Origin: a virus
Direction: 5' to 3' (one strand)
Length of the DNA: 14,557 bases
Virus genome (UHGV): UHGV-1341758
Shown here in pieces: positions 1 through 14,529 of this stretch. Under the pieces are notes generated by a model that saw only the letters and a program-made list of their open reading frames with translations, was not told the DNA's origin and did not search any database. Position 1 is the stretch's first letter. Each line of letters begins with the position of its first letter. The position numbers and the translations under genes were made by a program.

Positions 1-203
1 GGTCGTTTACCTCCGGCCATGTACTCGTCCGTTTCAGCCAGCATCCCGGGAGCATCAAGCTGTACCTGCTGTTGCGGTACCGAAAGACTTGCTGCCCCCA
101 TCTCGCGCCCCAGCGCGCAAAAGAAAACCCGCGCATAGGCGGGCTCCAGAAGCAGCGGTTCATTGAATGCTGCTGCAATAATGTGTGAAAGATTACGTCT
201 CAC
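1..203 (-). CDS. C: Minor capsid protein C / prohead protease (lambda C-like), N-terminal fragment running off the window edge
   Basis: Minus-strand translation of 1-203 reads ...RRNLSHIIAAAFNEPLLLEPAYARVFFCAL..., matching the recalled N-terminus of lambda gpC. It lies directly downstream of the portal gene, as in lambda. No in-frame ATG; the only candidate start is GTG at 203-201, overlapping the end of B. Start is uncertain. Confidence 0.6.
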   Translation of the reverse strand, partial: MRRNLSHIIAAAFNEPLLLEPAYARVFFCALGREMGAASLSVPQQQVQLDAPGMLAETDEYMAGGKR

Positions 204-1785
204 GTGGTGTTGTCTCCTCTTCCGGCCTGCGACTCTCCGCTATCTGCTGCTGATACGCCTGCGCTATCCACACCGGACGTGAGAGTCCGGCTTTTTCCCG
301 CTCTGCAGATTCCCTGACCTGCTGGCGGAAAATGTCCTGATAATCCTCGCCCATCAGCGCCAGCTCTTTCTCATACGTGCTCAGTCCGGCCTCAATGCGC
401 ATCACTGATTCCTGAACCTCCTTGAGCCCGTCAATGGCCATTCTTCCGGCTCCAATCCACTCAGCCCGTGACCAGGCTGATCGCGCCTGATAAAAATCAA
501 ACCGTGCCCGTGGCGGACGAATAATCCCCCGAAGAAGTGCCTCTTCCAGCCAGCAGGAAAACATCTGCGTGGCCAGCCGGGACGCAATAAATTTTCGCCG
601 CCCCATAAAATAGCGCCACGACTCATTGGCGGATGCGCGGGCACTTGAGTAACTGACCTTCGAGTAATCACGGGACAACTGTTCGTAGGAAACGCCAAGA
701 CCGGCGGCGATATACCGCAGCAGCGCCTGTTCAAGCGCCGAAAATCCATTGTCTGAATCCTGCGCGGTCTGAAGTTTCAGATCATCACCGGGGAAAAGGT
801 GCGGAATTTTGACACCGCCCAGCGTCACGCTATTCGTGTCATACCAGGTGGAGAACTTATCCAGAATATTAATAAGCGGATTATCCTTCTGCCCCTGCGG
901 CGCACCGGCGATATATTCAAAGGCCTTTTCGGTATCAAGGTCACTTTCAATCGTCGCTGCATACATCGCCTTCACTATGGCCGACTGAAGCTGTGTTGCC
1001 TGCAGGGAATCCAGCATCTTCAGCCGTTCCATAACGCTGTAAAACTGATTGGCTCCACGGGTCTGCCCGTCCTCCACCGGCTCGAAAATATGCAGCATGG
1101 CCGGACGCCCGGTGGGTAGTTCACGCGGGATCCGTTCCCATCGTCCACTCCCGGAGCGAGGAAAATCATCCTCACAGATATGGTACGCAACGGCACGGCC
1201 ATATCGATCAACCTCCACACCGGCCCGCAGAAAACGGTTCCCGATACCGTGTCCTGGCGTGTCCACCCGTTTCGGACTCACGGCTTTAAAACGCGTACGA
1301 AACAGTTGCGTACTCTCCGTATCCCAGACCGGCTGCACAAAGATTTCGCCGTTAAACGCATGAACGCCCACACCTTCACGGATAAATTCCGTAAACGTGC
1401 GTTTCCCTTCCACGTCGATCTCACCAAACATCCCTTCTGCGTATTCTGACCAGGCCGCCTCCACCTCATCGACAAAACTTTTTGCCGCGGTCTCCCGCAT
1501 CCCCAGCCAGCGCCAGTTCGGACGGTAGCTAATCAGAAACATATGCCCGACAATGTGATCCTTATGCAGGGCCACCGCATTGGCCGCTATTCCGTTATTG
1601 CGCACCAGATCATCTGCACGGGCATTCCCCAGACGCAACGCGGGCAGCAGGGCCGCATCGGCACTCTGCGAGGGTGGCAACCACTCTGCCATTTGCCCGC
1701 CAAATCCTGCACCGCCACCGGTGTAGCTGAGGCTCTCCCGAAGCGGAACGCCGTTCACATCAATCAGGACAGGCGTTCGTTTCAT
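193..1785 (-). CDS. B: Portal protein (lambda gpB-like)
   Basis: 530-aa ORF, near-identical over its full length to recalled lambda B (MKRTPVLIDVNGVPLRESLSY...). ATGA start/stop overlap with upstream W. Confidence 0.95.
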   Translation of the reverse strand: MKRTPVLIDVNGVPLRESLSYTGGGAGFGGQMAEWLPPSQSADAALLPALRLGNARADDLVRNNGIAANAVALHKDHIVGHMFLISYRPNWRWLGMRETAAKSFVDEVEAAWSEYAEGMFGEIDVEGKRTFTEFIREGVGVHAFNGEIFVQPVWDTESTQLFRTRFKAVSPKRVDTPGHGIGNRFLRAGVEVDRYGRAVAYHICEDDFPRSGSGRWERIPRELPTGRPAMLHIFEPVEDGQTRGANQFYSVMERLKMLDSLQATQLQSAIVKAMYAATIESDLDTEKAFEYIAGAPQGQKDNPLINILDKFSTWYDTNSVTLGGVKIPHLFPGDDLKLQTAQDSDNGFSALEQALLRYIAAGLGVSYEQLSRDYSKVSYSSARASANESWRYFMGRRKFIASRLATQMFSCWLEEALLRGIIRPPRARFDFYQARSAWSRAEWIGAGRMAIDGLKEVQESVMRIEAGLSTYEKELALMGEDYQDIFRQQVRESAEREKAGLSRPVWIAQAYQQQIAESRRPEEETTPRET

Positions 1786-1988
1786 AACCTCACTCCCAGC
1801 GGACGACGGCGACGGCGGGTTGTCCCCAGTACCGACTCCGCATCATTGATCGCCCGGTTAAGCTCATCCAGAGAAGCTGCCGTATATTCAATTCTGCGAC
1901 CATCTTTCTGGACAGACACCACCCGTTTACCGGTTAATAAATCAAGGCGCGCCTGACGCAGCGCCTGCAGTTCAGCGACTGTAACCAT
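1782..1988 (-). CDS. W: Head-tail joining / DNA stabilisation protein W (gpW-like)
   Basis: 68-aa ORF between terminase A and portal B, same length as lambda W, with similar core (LTGKRVVSVQKDGRRIEYTA vs lambda [20 protein letters not shown]). Confidence 0.85.
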   Translation of the reverse strand: MVTVAELQALRQARLDLLTGKRVVSVQKDGRRIEYTAASLDELNRAINDAESVLGTTRRRRRPLGVRL

Positions 1989-3900
1989 TCACTCCTCCGG
2001 ACAGCTTCGCTGCCAGTTCTTTAAGGGTTGGCCGGGTCGTCTCTTCTTCCCGGGATTTTGCCAGTACAGCCAGATCAAGCTGCCAGCGTTGCACGGACAC
2101 ACGTAATGCCGCGTAGGCATACACCAGGCAGTCCAGCGCTTCGTTACGCCGCTTTTTGTTATCCCACAGCAGACGCATCTTTCCTTTTTCCCACTTCTCC
2201 ACAAGCTCTTCCGCCACCAGTTGCTGCGCCTCTGTCTGCGAAAAAATCTCCGGATCATCAGGAAAACGGATGGCATACGACGTGGCTTCATCCGCAGGCG
2301 TGGGATCGGCTTTCATACGGGCATAGAGAATTTCTTTTGCGGTGTCCGTCCCCACTTCGCACAGATACACGCCCCGCTGATTGCGGGTTTTTGGCATGGT
2401 GATCACCGGCTTGCCATAAACAGATGCACCTTTTACCGGCAGCACCCGGAAAACACCGTGTTTTTTTGACCTCTGATAGACAATTTCGCCATCGATCCCC
2501 CCGGTGTCCCAGCAGACACGGGAAATGGTCATTTCGGTTCCGTCTGCATGGCGGTATTTTTTGTTGATCGCCACATCCACACGTAACAGCGTCTCTTCCT
2601 CATCGGGACGCCCCATAATGATGATTTTATCCACCAGAAAGGCTTCCTCTCCCGGAGCCCATCCCCAGACATACATCTCAAAACGGTTTCGCTGCGAGTC
2701 AATGCCCGCCGTCAGATAAACCACCCGGGAAGGCACCGCAGCCGTGTAACGCACAACCTTATCCATCAGCACCTGGTGATCGAGTTTTTCGCCCACGGCC
2801 TCTTCCCAGGTCTCGCCCAGCGTGGTGTTCACAAAGGTTTTCAGGCCGTTGGGATCTTTCAGTGCATCCAGCCAGTCATAGACAATCTGTACCCAGGTGG
2901 TGAACGGACTGTACGCCGTCCAGATATGGAATGTGATGGAGCGCGGCGGCGGAATTTCATTATCCGCGGCGCTGAAAAATGTCAGACCGTCACGAGTCCA
3001 CATGCCCGTGTTTTCACAGATCCACCGCCCGTTACTCTGGTCAAGCTCAGACTGATGGATCACACAGCCATGATGCTCACAAAGGTAGAAAACACTTTCT
3101 GGCTTATTCTTCTCCCACTTAAGACCGAAAGGCGAGGCATCATCGCCAAATTTCAGATACTGCTCCTCCCCACAGTGCGGACAGGGCACATAAAAACGCA
3201 TGAAATGTGCCGACTCGTTAGCGGCTTTTTCGATCTGGCAGGAGCCTTTGATTTTAGGCGTCGAGCCGCGAATGGATTTTGGCCATACAGAGCCCTCAAT
3301 ACGTTTATCCCCCAGCAGGGTTGGCGAACCCTCTTTTTCAACATCCGGTTCGAACGAGGAAAGCTCGTCATAACAAACCACATCCACGGATTTTTCACGG
3401 TAGTTTTTTGCTGCCGCTCCCCCCAGACACCAGAAACCCACACCGGAGGAAAAACGCTTCAGGGTGAGCGTATTATCGCGGTGTTTTCTTCCGAACCATG
3501 GAGCCAGCTCCAGCAATGCAGGAACATCCCTTATCGTTGGCTCAACATGAGATTTCATAAAATCTTCAGCAGCTGAGTCCGTGGGCTGAAAAAGAAGGCT
3601 GTTGCGTGATTTATGCTCAATAAAATAAGCCTCCACTCCCAGCAACATCTTTGTATAACCAACACGGGCAGATTTAATCAGGTTAACAGTGCGAATCAAA
3701 TCGTTGCCCATACAGTTCATGATGCCAACCTGAAACGGCAGTGTTTCCCACCGCCCCGGGGTATAAGACGACTCTTTAGGAAGGTAATAATGTTTATTGG
3801 CCCACTGAACTGTCGTCAGTGGAACAGGAATAATGAGAGATAAAAGCCCTGTAGCTATCGCACCGGCTGCATTAGCTGCCTTCTGTGCGTCTGAAATCAT
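1972..3900 (-). CDS. A: Terminase large subunit (lambda gpA-like)
   Basis: Strong full-length similarity to lambda A ([23 protein letters not shown](S/T)[34 protein letters not shown]). The ORF track begins at 3942, but ATG at 3900-3898 gives the same 37-residue spacing before YYLPKE as lambda and a 29-nt overlap with the Nu1 stop. Start could be 3942. Confidence 0.92.
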
Positions 3901-4420
3901 CGATCCACCCGCCCACGTTTTCACCGGCCTTAGCTGCAACATTGGAGGCTTTCGCGATTTCAGTTTTCACCACATCAAGGTGTGATGGTGAAATGTCCGG
4001 ATATTTACGCTGTAATGTCAACGGCACACGCACAAGTATCCCCGAAATCTCCTGTGCCACACGTTGCAGAATGAAGGTAAACAGTTCAGTTTCCAGCACC
4101 ACTCCGTCTTCACGGGCATTTTTCAGTTCCTGCGCATCTGCCTGCGCTTTTGTGAGCCGGTAGCGTTCATAGTCAATGGTGCCGGGTTGTAAATCTGACT
4201 CCGCTGCCGCACGCAAATCGGCCAGTTCTTTGCGGAGCTTTTCGTTTTCGATATCAGTTTCCCTCTGCGCATACCACTGAATTGCCATGGCAGTATCAAA
4301 TACAGATTCAATGCCCTTACTGCCTTTGGAGACGCAAGGGAGCCCCTGAGACTGCCAGCGTTCAATCGTCCGCGGGTCCACGTTAAAAATTTCGGCAAGC
4401 CTCTTTTTATTAACCTTCAT
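3872..4420 (-). CDS. nu1: Terminase small subunit (lambda gpNu1-like), N-terminal winged-HTH cosB-binding domain
   Basis: From ATG at 4420-4418 the protein reads [28 protein letters not shown]..., which aligns with lambda Nu1 (MEVNKKQLADIFGASIRTIQNWQEQGMP...); C-terminal DLQPGTI(D/E)YERYRLT(K/R)[12 protein letters not shown] is conserved. The ORF-track extension to 4660 reads through the AT-rich cos region (MIIIIIL...) and is not real. Confidence 0.9.
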
Positions 4421-4660
4421 AGAACAACCCATTATCAAATACAAGGCCCGACATGAAAACGCCAGAAAAAGGCATTTTCGGACACTTTCATGTCGGACAT
4501 TTATGAATGCAATATTAAAAAAAAACAAAAAGTTATATTCGAGAAGTACCGACACGATTTTCCCTGAAAAATTTTCATAAATAGTGAAAAACCGCGAGGT
4601 CGCCGCCCCGTAACCTGTCGGATCGCCGGAAAGGACCCGCAAAATGATAATAATTATCAT
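4421..4660 (-). other. cos packaging site: cosB (R-like sites plus AT-rich IHF-like spacer), cosN, and a putative cosQ side
   Basis: Minus-strand sequence upstream of Nu1 reads GGGCGGCGACCTCGCGGTTTTTCACTATTTATGAAAATTTT, almost identical to the lambda left end/cosN as recalled. Between cosN and Nu1 are repeated TGTCGG/TGTCCGA motifs (about 4446-4457, 4472-4502, 4541-4557) flanking an AT-rich block (about 4501-4540), the R3-I1-R2-R1 layout of lambda cosB. Confidence 0.8.
4597..4608 (-). other. cosN 12-nt cohesive-end sequence (GGGCGGCGACCT on the minus strand)
   Basis: Exact match to the lambda 12-nt cohesive end (recalled), in the expected position and orientation relative to Nu1. Confidence 0.8.
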
Positions 4661-4807
4661 CTACATGTCACAACGTGCATCTACGCCATCAAACCACGTC
4701 AAATAATCAATTATGACGCAGGTATCGTATTAATTGATCTGCATCAACTTAACGTAAAAACAACTTCAGACAATACAAATCAGCGACACTGAATACGGGA
4801 CAACCTC

Positions 4808-5041
4808 ATGTCAACGAAGAACAGAACCCGCAGAACAACAACCCGCAACATCCGCTTTCCTAACCAAATGATTGAACAAATTAACATCGCTCTTGATCAA
4901 AAAGGGTCCGGGAATTTCTCAGCCTGGGTCATTGAAGCCTGCCGCCGGAGACTGTGCTCAGAAAAAAGAGTTTCTCCTGAAGCAAACAAAGAAAAGAGTG
5001 ACATTACTGAATTGCTCAGAAAACAGATCAGACCAGATTGA
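4808..5041 (+). CDS. Small basic protein with ribbon-helix-helix-like N-terminus (possibly DUF3950/YlcI-like); accessory gene on the strand opposite the late operon
   Basis: 77-aa ORF with RNIRFPNQMIEQINIAL, a beta-strand-then-helix pattern typical of RHH DNA-binding proteins. It sits between cos and the lysis genes, opposite in orientation to the late operon. Family assignment is from memory only. Confidence 0.55.
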   Translation: MSTKNRTRRTTTRNIRFPNQMIEQINIALDQKGSGNFSAWVIEACRRRLCSEKRVSPEANKEKSDITELLRKQIRPD

Positions 5042-5097
5042 AGCAATTTAGATAATCGTGCAGACTACGCCCCTCATATCACATGGAAGGTACTACA

Positions 5098-5508
5098 ATG
5101 GCTCAGGTTGCCATTTTTAAACAAATATTCGATAAAGTGCGAAATAATTTAAACTATCACTGGTTTTATTCTGAACTAAAACGTCACAATGTCTCACATT
5201 ACATTTACTATTTAGCTACAGAGAATATTCATCTTGTTCTTGAAAACGATAATACGGTTTTAATAAAAGGACAGGGTAAGGTTGTAAATGTAAGATTTTC
5301 AAAAAATAAATGCCTTATAGAAGCCACCTTAAAAGGATTCAAATCAGGAGAGTTATCATTTTACGAATACAGGAAAAATCTTGCTACAGCAGGGGTTTTC
5401 AGATGGATTACAAATATCCACGAAAACAAAAGGTATTACTATACCTTTGATAATTCATTACTCTTTACTGAGAACATTCAGAACACTACACAAATATTTC
5501 CGCACTAA
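5098..5508 (+). CDS. AT-rich moron protein, possibly DUF1398 (YbcV/YdfO-like); function unknown
   Basis: Coding region is visibly AT-rich (roughly 30-35% GC by eye) against about 50% in the flanks. GGAAGG sits 7 nt upstream of ATG at 5098, favouring this start (136 aa) over the ORF-track start at 5083. Opposite strand to the late genes. Family assignment is from memory. Confidence 0.6.
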
Positions 5509-5764
5509 ATCATAACGTCCGGTTTCTTCCGTGCCAGAACCGGACTCGCTGGCATGATGAAATATGTGTACCCGGTAACCCCGGTGTGCATCGTTTTTGA
5601 TTATTCCCGCACACTCGCGCAGAAGGAGTTCCCCGTCGGGCTACGGTCTCTGTTAATACGGGAATACGGCGACGATACAGCGCATGATGTGTCAGGCTTG
5701 AATACCTTTATCCTTTAAAAGGGATATCAGTTAAGTTATCCCGTGTAGGGTATAAACCATTATC

Positions 5765-5796
5765 AAAGCCACTCTGTAGGAAGTGGCTTTTGTAAT
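5765..5796 (+). terminator. Putative intrinsic terminator for the plus-strand moron transcript
   Basis: Perfect 9-bp inverted repeat AAAGCCACT (5765-5773) / AGTGGCTTT (5782-5790) with an 8-nt loop, followed by TTTTGT. Confidence 0.45.
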
Positions 5797-5800
5797 GGCA

Positions 5801-5825
5801 ATAAAAAGCCCCGCGAATGCGAGGC
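5801..5825 (-). terminator. Putative intrinsic terminator on the minus strand downstream of Rz
   Basis: Minus-strand GCCTCGC-ATTC-GCGGGGC (7-bp stem with one G-U pair) followed by TTTTTAT. It is convergent with the plus-strand hairpin at 5765-5796. Confidence 0.4.
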
Positions 5826-5999
5826 TAAATCCTGGTATTTGTAATGACTGGCTCTTATCTCAACGCAGCCCCTTACCGCGCGCAAAATGCTCAATATCAA
5901 GCATCAGCAATGAGATGTTTAATCTGGATTCACTCCAGAAGTGAGCACCACCCTGTCTACAGAGCCAGATGTGAAGGATGATGAGTAAAATTATCGCTA

Positions 6000-6467
6000 T
6001 CATCGAAGGCATTGCGTCCTGATGTATTCCTGAAGCGTTCTCAGTGCTGTTTGGTCGCGGATAATTCCGTCCCGGATACCGAGAACGTTTCGTCCAGCAA
6101 CTGGAGAGAGTTCGACGGTGGCATCATTGCCCATGCCGGAGGCGCTGGAGGTTTCAGCTGAGGATGGCACAGGGCATTTTCCTTTGACGAGCACCCGACC
6201 ACCATTATCAAGCTTGCGCCGAAGAGCATCATTTTCAGCTTTCGCATCAGCTAACTCCTTCGTGTATTTTGCATCGAGCGCAGCAACATCACGCTGACGC
6301 ATCTGCATGTCAGTAATTGCCGCGTTCGCCAGCTTCAGTTCTCTGGCATTTTTGTCGCGCTGGGCTTTGTAGGTAATGGCGTTATCGCGGTAATGATTAA
6401 CAGCCCATGACAAGCAAACGATGATGCAGATAACCAGAGCGGAAATAATCGCGGTTACTCTGCTCAT
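6000..6467 (-). CDS. Rz: Spanin inner-membrane subunit Rz (i-spanin)
   Basis: First ~83 residues look identical to recalled lambda Rz ([83 protein letters not shown]); the C-terminal half diverges. ATGA overlap with R. Confidence 0.9.
6041..6247 (-). CDS. Rz1: Spanin outer-membrane lipoprotein subunit Rz1 (o-spanin), embedded in Rz in another frame
   Basis: ORF wholly inside Rz in a different frame, with lipobox-like LIMVVGC and a proline-rich segment KPPAPPAW (lambda Rz1 has VVGC and KPPPPPAW). The true start may be an internal Met. Confidence 0.8.
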
Positions 6468-6940
6468 ACCTCAATCTCTCTGACCGTTCCGCCTGCTTCT
6501 TTGAATTTTGCAATCAGGCTGTCAGCCTTATGCTCGAACTGACCGTAACCAGCGCCCGGCAACGAAGCCCAGATATTGCTGCAACGGTCGATAGCCTGAC
6601 GAATATCACCACGATCAATCATCGGTAAAGCGCCACGTTCTTTAATCTGCTGCAATGCCACAGCGTCCTGGCTTTTGGGGGAGAAGTCTTTCAAACCAAG
6701 CTGTTTACGGTAAGCATCCCACCAACGGGAAAGAAGCTGGTAGCGTCCGGCGGCTGTTGATTTGAGTTTGGGGTTTAGCGTGACAAGTTTGCGAGGGTGA
6801 TCGGAGTAATCAGTGAATAGCTCTCCGCCAACAATGACGTCATAACCATGATTTCTGGTTTTCTGCCGTCCGTTATCAGTTCCCTCTGACCACGCCAGCA
6901 TATCGAGGAACGCCTTACGTTGATTATTGATTTCCACCAT
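6464..6940 (-). CDS. R: Endolysin R (lambda-type lytic transglycosylase)
   Basis: 158-aa ORF matching recalled lambda R throughout ([51 protein letters not shown]...). Confidence 0.95.
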
Positions 6941-7247
6941 CTTCTACTCCAGCTTTTTTAGCAGCGAAGCGTTTGATAAGCGAACCAATCGAGTCAGTAC
7001 CGATGTAGCCGATGAACACGCTCGTTATATAAGCGAGATTGCTACTTAGTCCGGCGAAGTCGAGAAGGTCACGAATGAACCAGGCGATAATGGCGCACAT
7101 CGTTGCGTCGATTACTGTTTTTGTAAACGCACCGCCATTATATCTGCCGCGAAGGTACGCCATTGCAAACGCAAGGATTGCCCCGATGCCTTGTTCCTTT
7201 GCCGCAAGAATGGCGGCTAACAGGTCATGTTTTTCTGGCATCTTCAT
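6924..7247 (-). CDS. S: Holin S (class I holin with dual-start S107 antiholin / S105 holin)
   Basis: 107-aa ORF matching recalled lambda S; begins Met-Lys-Met ([10 protein letters not shown]...), the dual-start motif. Confidence 0.95.
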
Positions 7248-7609: not shown

Positions 7610-8233
7610 CTAACGTGTGACCGCATTCAAAATGTTGTCTGCGATTGACTCTTCTTTGTGGCATTGCACCACCAGAGCGTCATACAGCGGCTTAACAGTG
7701 CGTGACCAGGTGGGTTGAGTAAGGTTTGGGATTAGCATCGTTACAGCGCGATATGCGGCGCTTGCTGGCATTCTTGAATAGCCGACACCTTTGCATCTTC
7801 CGCACTCTTTCTCAACAACTCTCCCCCACTGCTCCGTTTTGGCTATATCAACCGCACGGCCTGTACCGTGGCAATCTCTGCATCTTGCCCCCGGCGTCGC
7901 GGCACTACGGCAATAATCTGCATAAGCGAATGTTGCGAGCACTTGCAGTACCTTTGCCTTAGTATTTCCTTCAAGCTTTGCCACACCACGGTATTTCCCC
8001 GATACCTTGTGTGCAAATTGCATCAGATAGTTGATAGCCTTTTGTTTGTCGTTCTGGCTGAGTTCATGCTTACCGCAGAATGCAGCCATTCCGAATCCGG
8101 CTTGTGATTGCGCCATCCCCATAGCAGCCATCACATCAGTACCGGAAAGAGAGTCAGAAGCCGTAGCCCGTGGTGAGTCGCTCATCATCGGGCTTTTTGG
8201 CGAATGAAATTTAGCTACGCTTTCGAGTCTCAT
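7610..8233 (-). CDS. Q: Late-gene antiterminator Q (lambda Q type)
   Basis: 207-aa ORF matching recalled lambda Q ([31 protein letters not shown]...; zinc-finger cysteines CRDCHGTG...CGRCKG). ATGA overlap with the upstream phosphatase gene. Confidence 0.95.
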
Positions 8234-13613: not shown

Positions 13614-13778
13614 TTATTTCTTCGAAAAGGATTGTGGTCGGCTGTAAAATGAATCAGGCTTCAGCATCGCCAGAACTTTCCGGACGCGCTCACTGCTGTC
13701 ATCATCCAGAAGCAATCCACCAATAACCGCCTGCTCTGCCTCGATGCTATGGGGCGGCGCATAAAAATTATCGGTCAT
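13614..13778 (-). CDS. DnaB-family helicase N-terminal fragment (54 codons), in a different frame from the main helicase ORF
   Basis: Manual translation from ATG at 13778: MTDNFYAPPHSIEAEQAVIGGLLLDDDSSERVRKVLAMLKPDSFYSRPQSFSKK*. PPHSIEAEQ.V.GGL.LD and DDFYTRP match the recalled DnaB N-terminus. Start overlaps the O-like gene stop. Confidence 0.7.
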   Translation of the reverse strand: MTDNFYAPPHSIEAEQAVIGGLLLDDDSSERVRKVLAMLKPDSFYSRPQSFSKK

Positions 13779-14529
13779 CGTGTTCACCCTCACGAACTTT
13801 CAGGTAGGTATTGTCGTTAAGCAGGAAATCAAATCCCTTTTTGTGCCAGACGGTTCCGCGTTGATGGTTTGGGCGTTCTTCGAACATCCATCGGCAATTT
13901 TCGCCTACGTAGCTCAAATAATTTCTCCAGTCCTGCATCGTGAACCCATGCCCGTCAAGCTGGCGGGTTATCACTCCGGCTTTGCGCCAGAACGTTCGGA
14001 TCTGGTTTTTACGCTTGTCATTCAGTGCGCGGATTCTTGGCGCTTCAGGAAGGATTTCGTGGTAAGCATCGACAACATCCTGACAGCTAACGGAAGGTTT
14101 TTTCTTGTCAGACTTTTTGTCTGCTGCGGTACTCTCTAATACGTCAGTATTAGAGATAATATTATTATATTCTTTATCTGTGGTAATTTGCTGGTAATCT
14201 GCTGGTACAGTATTGCTTGCAGGCATTGGTATTGCTGGCTTTGAGGTGGTAATTTGCTGGTAATCTGCTGGTACAAAATTTGACTGATAATCGTCATATT
14301 TCTCTACCGAGAAAACTGAGAATTTACCGTGTGAAACCCAGTCAATCATGCCGAGTTTTTTGAACTTTCTAAGCAGGTACTGAACGCGATCTGGTTTGAG
14401 TCCTGTTTCAAACGCCAGAGAGTTTCTACCGCCAAGTAGCTTCCCTCTGCCTACCAGAATTTCTCCTGCGTCAGTCATTACATACTCAGGCGTATGCTTT
14501 GCTTGAATCGCCACGGGTTTAACAGACAC
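13768..14529 (-). CDS. Replication initiator (lambda O-like / iteron-binding origin protein)
   Basis: 253-aa ORF immediately upstream of the helicase, overlapping its start. Contains in-frame DNA direct repeats (iterons) encoding VPADYQQITT twice, followed by an AT-rich stretch, as in lambda ori inside O. The start codon in the ORF track is GTG at 14529; the first ATG is at 14478. Confidence 0.65.
   Translation of the reverse strand: MSVKPVAIQAKHTPEYVMTDAGEILVGRGKLLGGRNSLAFETGLKPDRVQYLLRKFKKLGMIDWVSHGKFSVFSVEKYDDYQSNFVPADYQQITTSKPAIPMPASNTVPADYQQITTDKEYNNIISNTDVLESTAADKKSDKKKPSVSCQDVVDAYHEILPEAPRIRALNDKRKNQIRTFWRKAGVITRQLDGHGFTMQDWRNYLSYVGENCRWMFEERPNHQRGTVWHKKGFDFLLNDNTYLKVREGEHDDR
14180..14275 (-). 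repeat. Putative phage replication origin iterons inside the O-like gene
   Basis: Perfect 30-bp direct repeat GTGGTAATTTGCTGGTAATCTGCTGGTACA at 14180-14209 and 14246-14275, each made of tandem ~11-bp TGGTAAT(T/C)TGC units, with related GGTATTGCTGGC between. AT-rich block (about 14140-14179) lies on the downstream side. Confidence 0.65.

Follow-up and report, generated by a model that had tools for sequence, protein, structure and literature searches.

The slot between cosN and the lysis genes

The window (the whole 14,557-nt stretch of the virus genome UHGV-1341758 that was analysed) is a lambdoid phage or prophage whose late genes lie on the minus strand. As the sequence-only reading had proposed, two genes of the opposite strand stand between cos and the lysis cassette, and both open reading frames were confirmed. 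The features of this slot and its surroundings are the following:

193-1785, minus strand: portal gene
1972-3942, minus strand: large terminase gene (TerL)
ending near 4417, minus strand: Nu1 (Pfam Phage_Nu1)
4597-4608: 12-nt cohesive end of cosN, AGGTCGCCGCCC, the packaging-side border of the slot
4706-4738, plus strand: imperfect palindrome ATCAATTATGACG-N7-CGTATTAATTGAT, 70 nt upstream of the ylcI-like start
4808-5041, plus strand: gene of the ylcI/ynfO family (DUF3950), 77 aa, pI 10.6, with Pfam, NCBIfam and PHROG matches
5098-5508, plus strand: DUF1398 gene (YdfO/YbcV/YcgX family), 136 aa, 31.1% GC, pI 9.4
5757-5798, plus strand: hairpin with 17-nt arms, CCATTATCAAAGCCACT / AGTGGCTTTTGTAATGG, then TTTTG; inverted repeat, 88% complementary
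5807-5826, minus strand: terminator-like hairpin AGCCTCGCATTCGCGGGGCT, then TTTTATT, downstream of Rz, from the terminator scan
6000-6467, minus strand: Rz (Pfam Phage_lysis)
6464-6940, minus strand: endolysin gene (R)
6924-7247, minus strand: holin gene (S)
7610-8233, minus strand: Q

The end of Nu1 was placed near 4417 because the Phage_Nu1 match begins at residue 81 of the listed ORF. Beyond Q follow NinG, NinX, Dam, NinB, a DnaB-like helicase and a replication gene. All the neighbouring late genes (Nu1, TerL, portal, Rz, R, S and Q) are on the minus strand, and the pair, separated from cosN by 200 bp, is oriented against the late operon. The cosN sequence AGGTCGCCGCCC is the reverse complement of the lambda cos sequence GGGCGGCGACCT; an alignment of 362 nt at 95% identity pairs window position 4609 with lambda position 48502, at the right end of the phage. 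For the DUF1398 gene we prefer the ATG at 5098 over the alternative ATG at 5083, since GGAAGG lies 7 nt before the former and the RefSeq form of the gene is 411 nt long. The gap between the two genes is about 56-57 nt. Downstream of the DUF1398 gene there is a stretch of 490 nt with no recognised genes; tblastn found neither bor nor lambdap79 in the window, and an Rfam scan of positions 4300 to 6100 returned nothing near the gathering score.

The sharp AT-richness that had been noticed in 5098-5508 was borne out when GC content was computed. The DUF1398 gene has 31.1% GC (GC3 29.9%), against 44.0% in the ylcI-like gene, 49.2% in the whole window and 48-52% in the flanking genes; the window's lowest-GC stretch of 411 nt starts at 5105, and only 0.22% of all its 411-nt stretches are equally low. 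The same reading had taken this composition as a sign of separate horizontal acquisition, a conclusion that does not follow, as low GC runs through the whole DUF1398 family: among 31 chromosomal copies, the gene has 40.9% GC versus 49.3% in the flanks. The low GC of the gene is therefore no evidence of its recent separate acquisition by the window phage. By contrast, the description of the lysis-to-cos slot as a hotspot for accessory (moron) genes was well founded, the cargo of the slot being variable, with bor in lambda and DLP12 and other genes in Qin and the Stx phages. The locus has the attributes of a moron, namely a position between Rz and cos, opposite orientation, deviant GC, a variable slot and a non-essential homologue in lambda. 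The statement that the pair sits where lambda carries bor needs correcting, since lambda has homologues of both genes plus bor.

Judged by its sequence, the palindrome at 4706-4738 is a candidate operator or promoter-region element. We also considered it as the operator of YlcI and rejected this assignment for want of covariation: lambda, Qin and DLP12-type loci have the palindrome unchanged, one locus (L078) has lost part of it and HNH-type loci do not have it. All the DNA from cos to ylcI is near-invariant among lambda-type phages, which need not be due to regulation, since constraints of packaging or recombination could also account for it. On the other side of the pair, the hairpin at 5757-5798 is a plausible candidate for the terminator of the plus-strand unit; it was not among the plus-strand calls of the consensus terminator scan, and no plus-strand sigma-70-like promoter passed the consensus scan. 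The minus-strand hairpin at 5807-5826 marks the lysis-side border of the slot.

The YlcI/YnfO and DUF1398 proteins

The 77-aa product of 4808-5041 is a member of the YlcI/YnfO family, as had been guessed. It matches the whole 30-position model of Pfam DUF3950 (PF13132) with an E-value of 4.9e-21 and 74.8 bits (cutoff 25), the NCBIfam family YlcI_YnfO_N (NF041551) with 35.7 bits (cutoff 30) and PHROG 949 with an E-value of 7.9e-34, and it is 96% identical to K-12 YnfO. The architecture of the family comprises an Arg-rich N-terminal arm, a conserved domain of 50 aa and a variable C-terminal tail; in the window protein residues 4-16 hold five Arg and one Lys, and there is no hydrophobic segment. 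The residues that are invariant in the alignment (I22, E23, Q24, I25, L29, K32, G33, S38, A39 and W40) are all present, as are the NFS motif and the core IEQI...KG..NFSAW. When codons 1-50 are compared with those of a distant copy, 18 codons are changed synonymously and 5 non-synonymously, and third positions account for 21 of the 28 base differences. ylcI is thus a real coding gene, and strong purifying selection acts on this part of it.

The sequence-only reading had called this protein RHH-like, which fits its sequence pattern but falls short of statistical significance. A basic arm, the strand NIRFP, a helix, the turn KGSGNFS and a second helix follow each other as in ribbon-helix-helix regulators (Arc, Mnt, CopG, ParD, the C-terminal domain of HicB), which are like YlcI in size, in their basic N-terminal arm and in the succession of strand, helix, Gly turn and helix, but with which no significant sequence relationship was found. 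An hhalign comparison with seven RHH sequences gave the expected register, setting YlcI NIRFPNQMIEQINIALDQKG on Arc NLRWPREVLDLVRKVAEENG, with an E-value of 0.09 and a probability of 0.6%. A Pfam scan down to an E-value of 10 yielded DUF3950 alone and no RHH family, a profile search of the PDB gave no match, and the PHROG family of HicB-like antitoxins was matched weakly (E 0.007). YlcI is a small, very basic protein that probably binds DNA, and the pattern suggests that it may be a dimer of the ribbon-helix-helix type.

The guess that 5098-5508 encodes a DUF1398/YbcV-like protein was confirmed over the full domain. The 136-aa product matches positions 1-119 of the 119 of Pfam DUF1398 (PF07166) with an E-value of 3.3e-43 and 147 bits (cutoff 22), and phmmer relates it, with an E-value of 2.9e-67, to PDB 2HH8, which is the NMR structure of E. 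coli YdfO. It is 75% identical to K-12 YdfO and 100% identical to the allele of phages Kati, Chlobot, ev099 and PhiR49_1. Both window proteins are thus 96-100% identical to catalogued proteins of named families, for one of which a structure has been solved.

The DUF1398 protein is basic, and 16% of its residues are aromatic; it lacks a signal peptide and any hydrophobic or transmembrane segment (maximum hydropathy over 19 residues, 0.39). An AF2 model built on the single sequence was unusable (pLDDT 50.7), whereas an alignment of 23 sequences gave a model with a pLDDT of 88.8, made of two helix-helix-three-strand units. An hhalign comparison of the two halves of the protein brings them into register (E 0.0065), and the window protein has the fold of YdfO, a duplicated helix-helix-three-strand unit. 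In a search for structural relatives 2HH8 was the sole match, with no toxin or capsid protein fold, and no toxin-like catalytic motif was found in the proteins of the locus. Overall dN/dS is 0.2-0.35; residues 55-95 are relaxed, reaching 0.6-0.7, and the ratio never exceeds 1. The gene is therefore a real coding gene under purifying selection. The family is very small, accounting for 189 of 1.84 billion clusters formed at 50% identity, and is confined to Enterobacteriaceae; occurrences in Pseudomonas, Actinobacteria, Bacteroidetes and other groups were rejected as contamination with lambda DNA. We picture the DUF1398 protein as a non-catalytic, basic, aromatic-rich binding protein with an orphan duplicated fold. 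Its target is probably a host component, given that chromosomal paralogues, YcgX among them, are found far from any phage context.

Two independent genes

Since the sequence-only reading had raised an antitoxin/toxin or regulator/effector pair, the association of the two genes deserves attention. We scanned 66 genomic loci of DUF1398 relatives with HMMs of both families. In phage-type copies of DUF1398 (at least 70% identity) with enough upstream DNA, ylcI lies upstream on the same strand in all cases but one (L035). In contrast, YlcI is absent from all 35 divergent chromosomal DUF1398 loci (29-53% identical), which are of the YcgX type in Escherichia and Shigella and occur also in Citrobacter, Klebsiella, Kluyvera, Pseudocitrobacter and Salmonella diarizonae. 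Inspection of nine loci (eight divergent ones and L035) revealed no conserved neighbour or alternative small partner. DUF1398 also occurs without YlcI in L005, as it does in L035, and one distant copy lies between Q and the holin gene on the late strand. Conversely, among 50,697 phage records the N-terminal domain of YlcI is present in 155 and DUF1398 in 43, and in phages of the HNH/TerS/TerL type YlcI is the sole gene of the opposite strand in the interval from Rz to the HNH endonuclease gene. The two genes are not inherited jointly as a unit across genomes. They are independent genes and not an obligate pair, a reading that fails because each of them is common without the other.

These data bear directly on a type II toxin-antitoxin-like system, in which YlcI would be both an RHH antitoxin and an autorepressor, and the DUF1398 protein the toxin that it neutralises. 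Such a system is suggested by the arrangement itself, a small basic putative DNA-binding gene followed, about 56 nt further on, by a larger gene of the same strand, by the weak match of YlcI to HicB-like antitoxins and by the presence of ylcI upstream of every phage-type DUF1398 locus with enough upstream DNA, except L035. We nevertheless consider it very improbable, given the solo YlcI of the Stx and HNH-type phages, the unequal counts of phage records and the 35 loci devoid of YlcI, to which must be added that in lambda and DLP12 some 540 nt, which include a gene of the opposite strand, separate the two genes, and that no toxin-like catalytic motif or fold was found. Further, a clone overexpressing ybcV must be viable, because it was scored in a glycogen screen (PMC2853380).

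A 233-aa fusion of DUF3950 and DUF1398 (P0014), considered as Rosetta-stone evidence for a joint function, was rejected as a rare variant, found on six short contigs, of a cluster whose members are mostly 136 aa long. The Qin arrangement can readily give rise to such fusions, as its two ORFs are in one frame with just a single TGA codon between them.

YlcI and DUF1398 are therefore best studied separately rather than as a toxin-antitoxin pair. Of the two, YlcI is found more widely and is the one whose position is conserved; what appears to be conserved in YlcI is this position beside the start of the packaging module rather than a partner gene.

Expression, role and comparison with known loci

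We found no paper assigning a function to these families. Homology led to catalogued and uncharacterised proteins, not to characterised ones with known roles. In a genome-wide CRISPRi screen of lambda, knock-down of lambdap78 gave an efficiency of plating of 1.3-1.9, classed as non-essential (PMC10695390); the lambda homologue of DUF1398 is dispensable for plaque formation. The neighbouring lambdap79 scored as essential in the same screen, whose table cites earlier work as finding it non-essential (PMC10695390), and we read the score as a polar effect on the late transcript, since lambdap79 is on the late strand. Expression data refer to the K-12 homologues rather than to the window allele. 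Overexpression of T4 MotB, which alters H-NS-dependent repression, raised ybcV and ybcW of DLP12 more than 1000-fold (PMC7827196), deletion of pdhR lowered both about 10-fold (PMC7660256), and a membrane-active ionic liquid induced ydfO 12- to 116-fold (PMC4077768). Expression of ydfO also changes on induction of DicC. Overexpression of ybcV results in a glycogen-deficient phenotype (PMC2853380), and a ybcV::kan strain of the Keio collection is in use (PMC3945230).

The reading that we prefer, at about even chances, is that the pair represents, in its Qin-type form (ydfO coming directly after ynfO), a widespread lambdoid accessory module, consisting of two independent, non-essential genes that share an opposite-strand slot. 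Within it, the identity of the genes, their mutual independence, the purifying selection, the composition and the non-essentiality are established; the proposals on expression are conditional. The cassette would be transcribed from a weak dedicated promoter, placed within the 200 bp that separate ylcI from cosN, as far as the hairpin at 5757-5798. Given such a promoter and terminator, it would be expressed, if at all, from the prophage and not within late transcription, and convergent late transcription would shut it off in lytic growth. Silencing of the cassette by H-NS is probable: the AT-rich DUF1398 gene would be kept largely silent and be de-repressed under particular conditions. Matches to the high-affinity motif of H-NS, TCGWTWAATT, are not enriched (4, against 3.99 expected).

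Several other roles have to be weighed against this preferred reading. The DUF1398 protein could modulate host physiology, so that its de-repression would alter the stress response or metabolism of the lysogen, as other cryptic-prophage genes do, with YlcI as an unrelated neighbour. This proposal, which overlaps the preferred reading, is in line with the glycogen phenotype of ybcV, its dependence on PdhR and the responses of ydfO to the ionic liquid and to DicC, and with the location of the chromosomal paralogue ycgX, which adjoins the bluR-bluF-ycgZ-ymgAB stress and biofilm locus. All these observations are at the level of screens or expression, without a mechanism, and the oxidative-stress phenotype often quoted for YdfO is that of YfdO and was set aside as a mis-citation; we regard the proposal as unlikely, though by no means far-fetched. 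Quite unlikely, in our estimate, is a role of one or both proteins in anti-phage defence or superinfection exclusion, blocking competing phages from the lysogen. YlcI might bind near the cos site or the packaging start of incoming lambdoid phages, for example, and DUF1398 might inhibit a phage or host factor. The accessory-gene hotspot adjoining bor, the fixed position of YlcI beside the packaging module across two unrelated terminase types and the faster evolution of DUF1398 residues 55-95 would all suit such a role. However, dN/dS never exceeds 1, the PADLOC models were unmatched (YlcI gave no match and DUF1398 only Csx23, with an E-value of 0.023 and 12.7 bits), the chromosomal DUF1398 orphans lie outside contexts resembling defence islands, and no phenotype of this kind is reported in the papers found.

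Defence is also brought to mind by the neighbouring gene of lambda, as lambdap79 activates the NADase defence system Vulcan and was lost in all seven escape phages sequenced (7/7), probably, according to the authors, by recombination with Qin (bioRxiv 10.64898/2026.09.04.749371). Recombination of this kind between lambda and Qin would give the arrangement found in the window. Having no lambdap79, the window phage should escape Vulcan if Vulcan senses nothing else in it; the system reportedly blocks other phages that have no lambdap79.

A more specific proposal, which we see as improbable, makes YlcI a position-specific regulator of the junction: a DNA-binding protein expressed from the prophage at the boundary between lysis and packaging genes, where it would, for instance, gate late read-through into the packaging genes or hinder the cos site and terminase of superinfecting relatives, being shut off by convergent late transcription during the phage's own lytic growth. 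DUF1398 would then be a separate, H-NS-silenced effector with a new fold and a target in the host or in rival phages. A virion or packaging role, with DUF1398 as a 'head' or 'envelope' protein and YlcI as a cos-proximal packaging accessory factor, has been largely refuted and is extremely improbable. It derives from the label 'head protein' of PHROG 413, from the names 'head protein' and 'putative envelope protein' in RefSeq/GenBank and from the proximity of both genes to cos and the terminase genes. Yet the basis given in the lambda record is solely 'Predicted by GeneMark', both genes run opposite to the late operon, lambdap78 is not needed for plaques, DUF1398 has no transmembrane segment or signal peptide and a fold unlike that of any capsid protein, and its paralogues reside at non-phage chromosomal sites. 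DUF1398 does not belong to the late structural operon, its lambda homologue is dispensable, and the 'head protein' and 'envelope protein' labels are unfounded.

The value of the locus as a discovery is small, the module being already present in phage lambda and in K-12. Part of its residual value is as a reminder that DUF1398 has a fold with no structural relatives, and that the best-studied phage still contains two conserved genes, maintained by purifying selection, to which no function has been assigned.

The pair corresponds to the catalogued YlcI/YnfO and YdfO/YbcV genes, a common lambdoid accessory module that is already known. The 1.6-kb region finds matches in 4583 of 5426 complete E. 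coli genomes, at a median of 2 places per genome, and in 259 phage records, including lambda. In lambda, the slot between Rz and cos holds bor (lambdap77), the DUF1398 gene lambdap78, the ybcW-like lambdap79 on the late strand and an unannotated ylcI-like ORF, and DLP12 has the same order (borD, ybcV, ybcW, ylcI). These two share with the window the slot and the strand of ylcI and DUF1398, on which their bor also lies. Between lambda and the window, identity is 94.5% over the first 55 residues of YlcI, 76% for the DUF1398 protein and 95% for the DNA from cos to ylcI. They differ from the window in carrying bor and in an insert of about 540 nt (lambdap79/ybcW, late strand) that splits the two genes and alters the C-terminal tail of YlcI.

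Stx phages carry Ant, KilA-N or TonB-like genes in the lysis-to-cos slot. In Stx and HNH/TerS/TerL-type phages (BP-4795 ORF52, JLK-2012 gp69) YlcI is solo, with an N-terminal domain 88-92% identical to that of the window. As in the window, its place is between Rz and the first packaging gene, and its orientation is opposite to theirs; these phages lack DUF1398, and the HNH endonuclease gene is 41 nt away. The upstream DNA and the palindrome are missing in them because ylcI abuts the HNH gene.

The closest counterpart of the layout is the ynfO-ydfO pair of K-12 Qin (b4533, b1549), with the same order, gene lengths and spacing of about 57 nt. In Qin the two genes are in the same frame, with 291 nt from start to start, versus 290 nt in the window, and YdfO differs from the window allele by about 25%, mostly in residues 55-95. 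Downstream, Qin carries gnsB, ynfN and cspI where the window has its 490 nt with no recognised genes. Apart from this Qin-type layout, with neither bor nor lambdap79, the window copy is not unusual.

Names and phenotypes attached to the gene pair

The product of the DUF1398 gene (5098-5508, plus strand; lambdap78 in lambda) is called a 'head protein' in RefSeq lambda, PHROG 413 and phage Kati, and a 'putative envelope protein' in older lambda-derived records. The sole basis given for lambdap78 in the lambda record NC_001416 is 'Predicted by GeneMark'. The gene lies on the non-late strand and is non-essential, its product has no hydrophobic segment, and both labels look unfounded. The ylcI-like ORF of lambda (NC_001416 about 48139-48303, complement; 2740-2904 in L074, our lambda locus) is unannotated in the reference record; it is under purifying selection and, across 55 residues, shares 94.5% identity with the protein encoded at window 4808-5041 (plus strand).

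Overexpression of YdfO, the family member of the K-12 prophage Qin, has been described as raising resistance to oxidative stress (PMC4077768), with Wang et al. 2010 (PMC3105296) cited as the source. The proteins named there are YfdK, YfdO and YfdS of prophage CPS-53, and 'ydfO' is absent from the paper. We therefore rejected the phenotype, since the cited work concerns YfdO and not YdfO; the two gene names appear to have been mixed up, an error since passed into later tables. K-12 ydfO also appears in a table of genes scored 'essential only by TraDIS' (PMC5821084), although its home prophage, Qin, is dispensable. For such a gene, at 31% GC and likely bound by H-NS, the listing is probably artefactual, reflecting a lack of transposon insertions and not a real requirement.

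Matches in assemblies with unexpected host labels

Database searches returned DUF1398 and YlcI 'homologues' (76% identity) in assemblies labelled Pseudomonas, Kitasatospora, Brevibacillus, Flavobacterium, Bradyrhizobium and others (genome-contig loci L014-L034, L036 and L045-L048). These contigs are either about 3.5 kb long or about 48.5 kb with the homologues close to the contig ends, and their gene order is lambda's own, ylcI-ybcW-ybcV. The matches look like contamination with lambda DNA, from control or spike-in material. The same appears to hold for a phage record, MW057783.1 ('Campylobacter phage CJLB-4'), and for YlcI proteins labelled Staphylococcus aureus, Bacillus sp. and the spider Caerostris extrusa.

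Comparison with Qin and the absence of lambdap79

In Qin (locus L084, 3757-4458), ynfO and ydfO share one reading frame with a single TGA between them, so that one base substitution is sufficient to produce a 233-aa fusion of the kind seen in P0014, a DUF3950-DUF1398 protein present on a few short contigs. Unlike in Qin, the two genes at 4808-5508 of the window are out of frame with each other.

A tblastn search found neither the ybcW-like lambdap79 nor bor in the window; the stretches concerned are window 5042-5097 and 5509-5999, against lambda 46459-47944. A 2026 preprint (bioRxiv 10.64898/2026.09.04.749371) reports that lambdap79 triggers Vulcan, an NADase defence system, and attributes the loss of lambdap79 in escape phages to probable recombination with Qin. 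Such recombination would yield the same arrangement as that of the window. Since the window lacks lambdap79 and has the arrangement expected from recombination with Qin, its phage may be naturally insensitive to Vulcan.

Small neighbouring ORFs and a repeat array

Further ORFs of the window are as follows.

5554-5718, plus strand: 54-aa ORF that follows the DUF1398 gene
5860-6012, minus strand: 50-aa ORF with a 13-nt overlap with the end of Rz
13768-14529: 253-aa ORF of the replication region, containing direct repeats

The 50-aa ORF falls in no Pfam family; its match is to PHROG 11822 (unknown function; E 1.8e-36), and RefSeq genomes list its product as a hypothetical protein. The 54-aa ORF is annotated in phage Kati and not in RefSeq, had no match in Pfam, NCBIfam, PHROGs or PADLOC, and is probably not a gene.

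The direct repeats at 14180-14280 have a unit of about 11 nt (TGCTGGTAAT, part of GTGGTAATTTGCTGGTAATCTGCTGGTAC), and the peptide repeated through them is VPADYQQITT. They look like origin iterons within an initiator gene, an arrangement known from lambda O.
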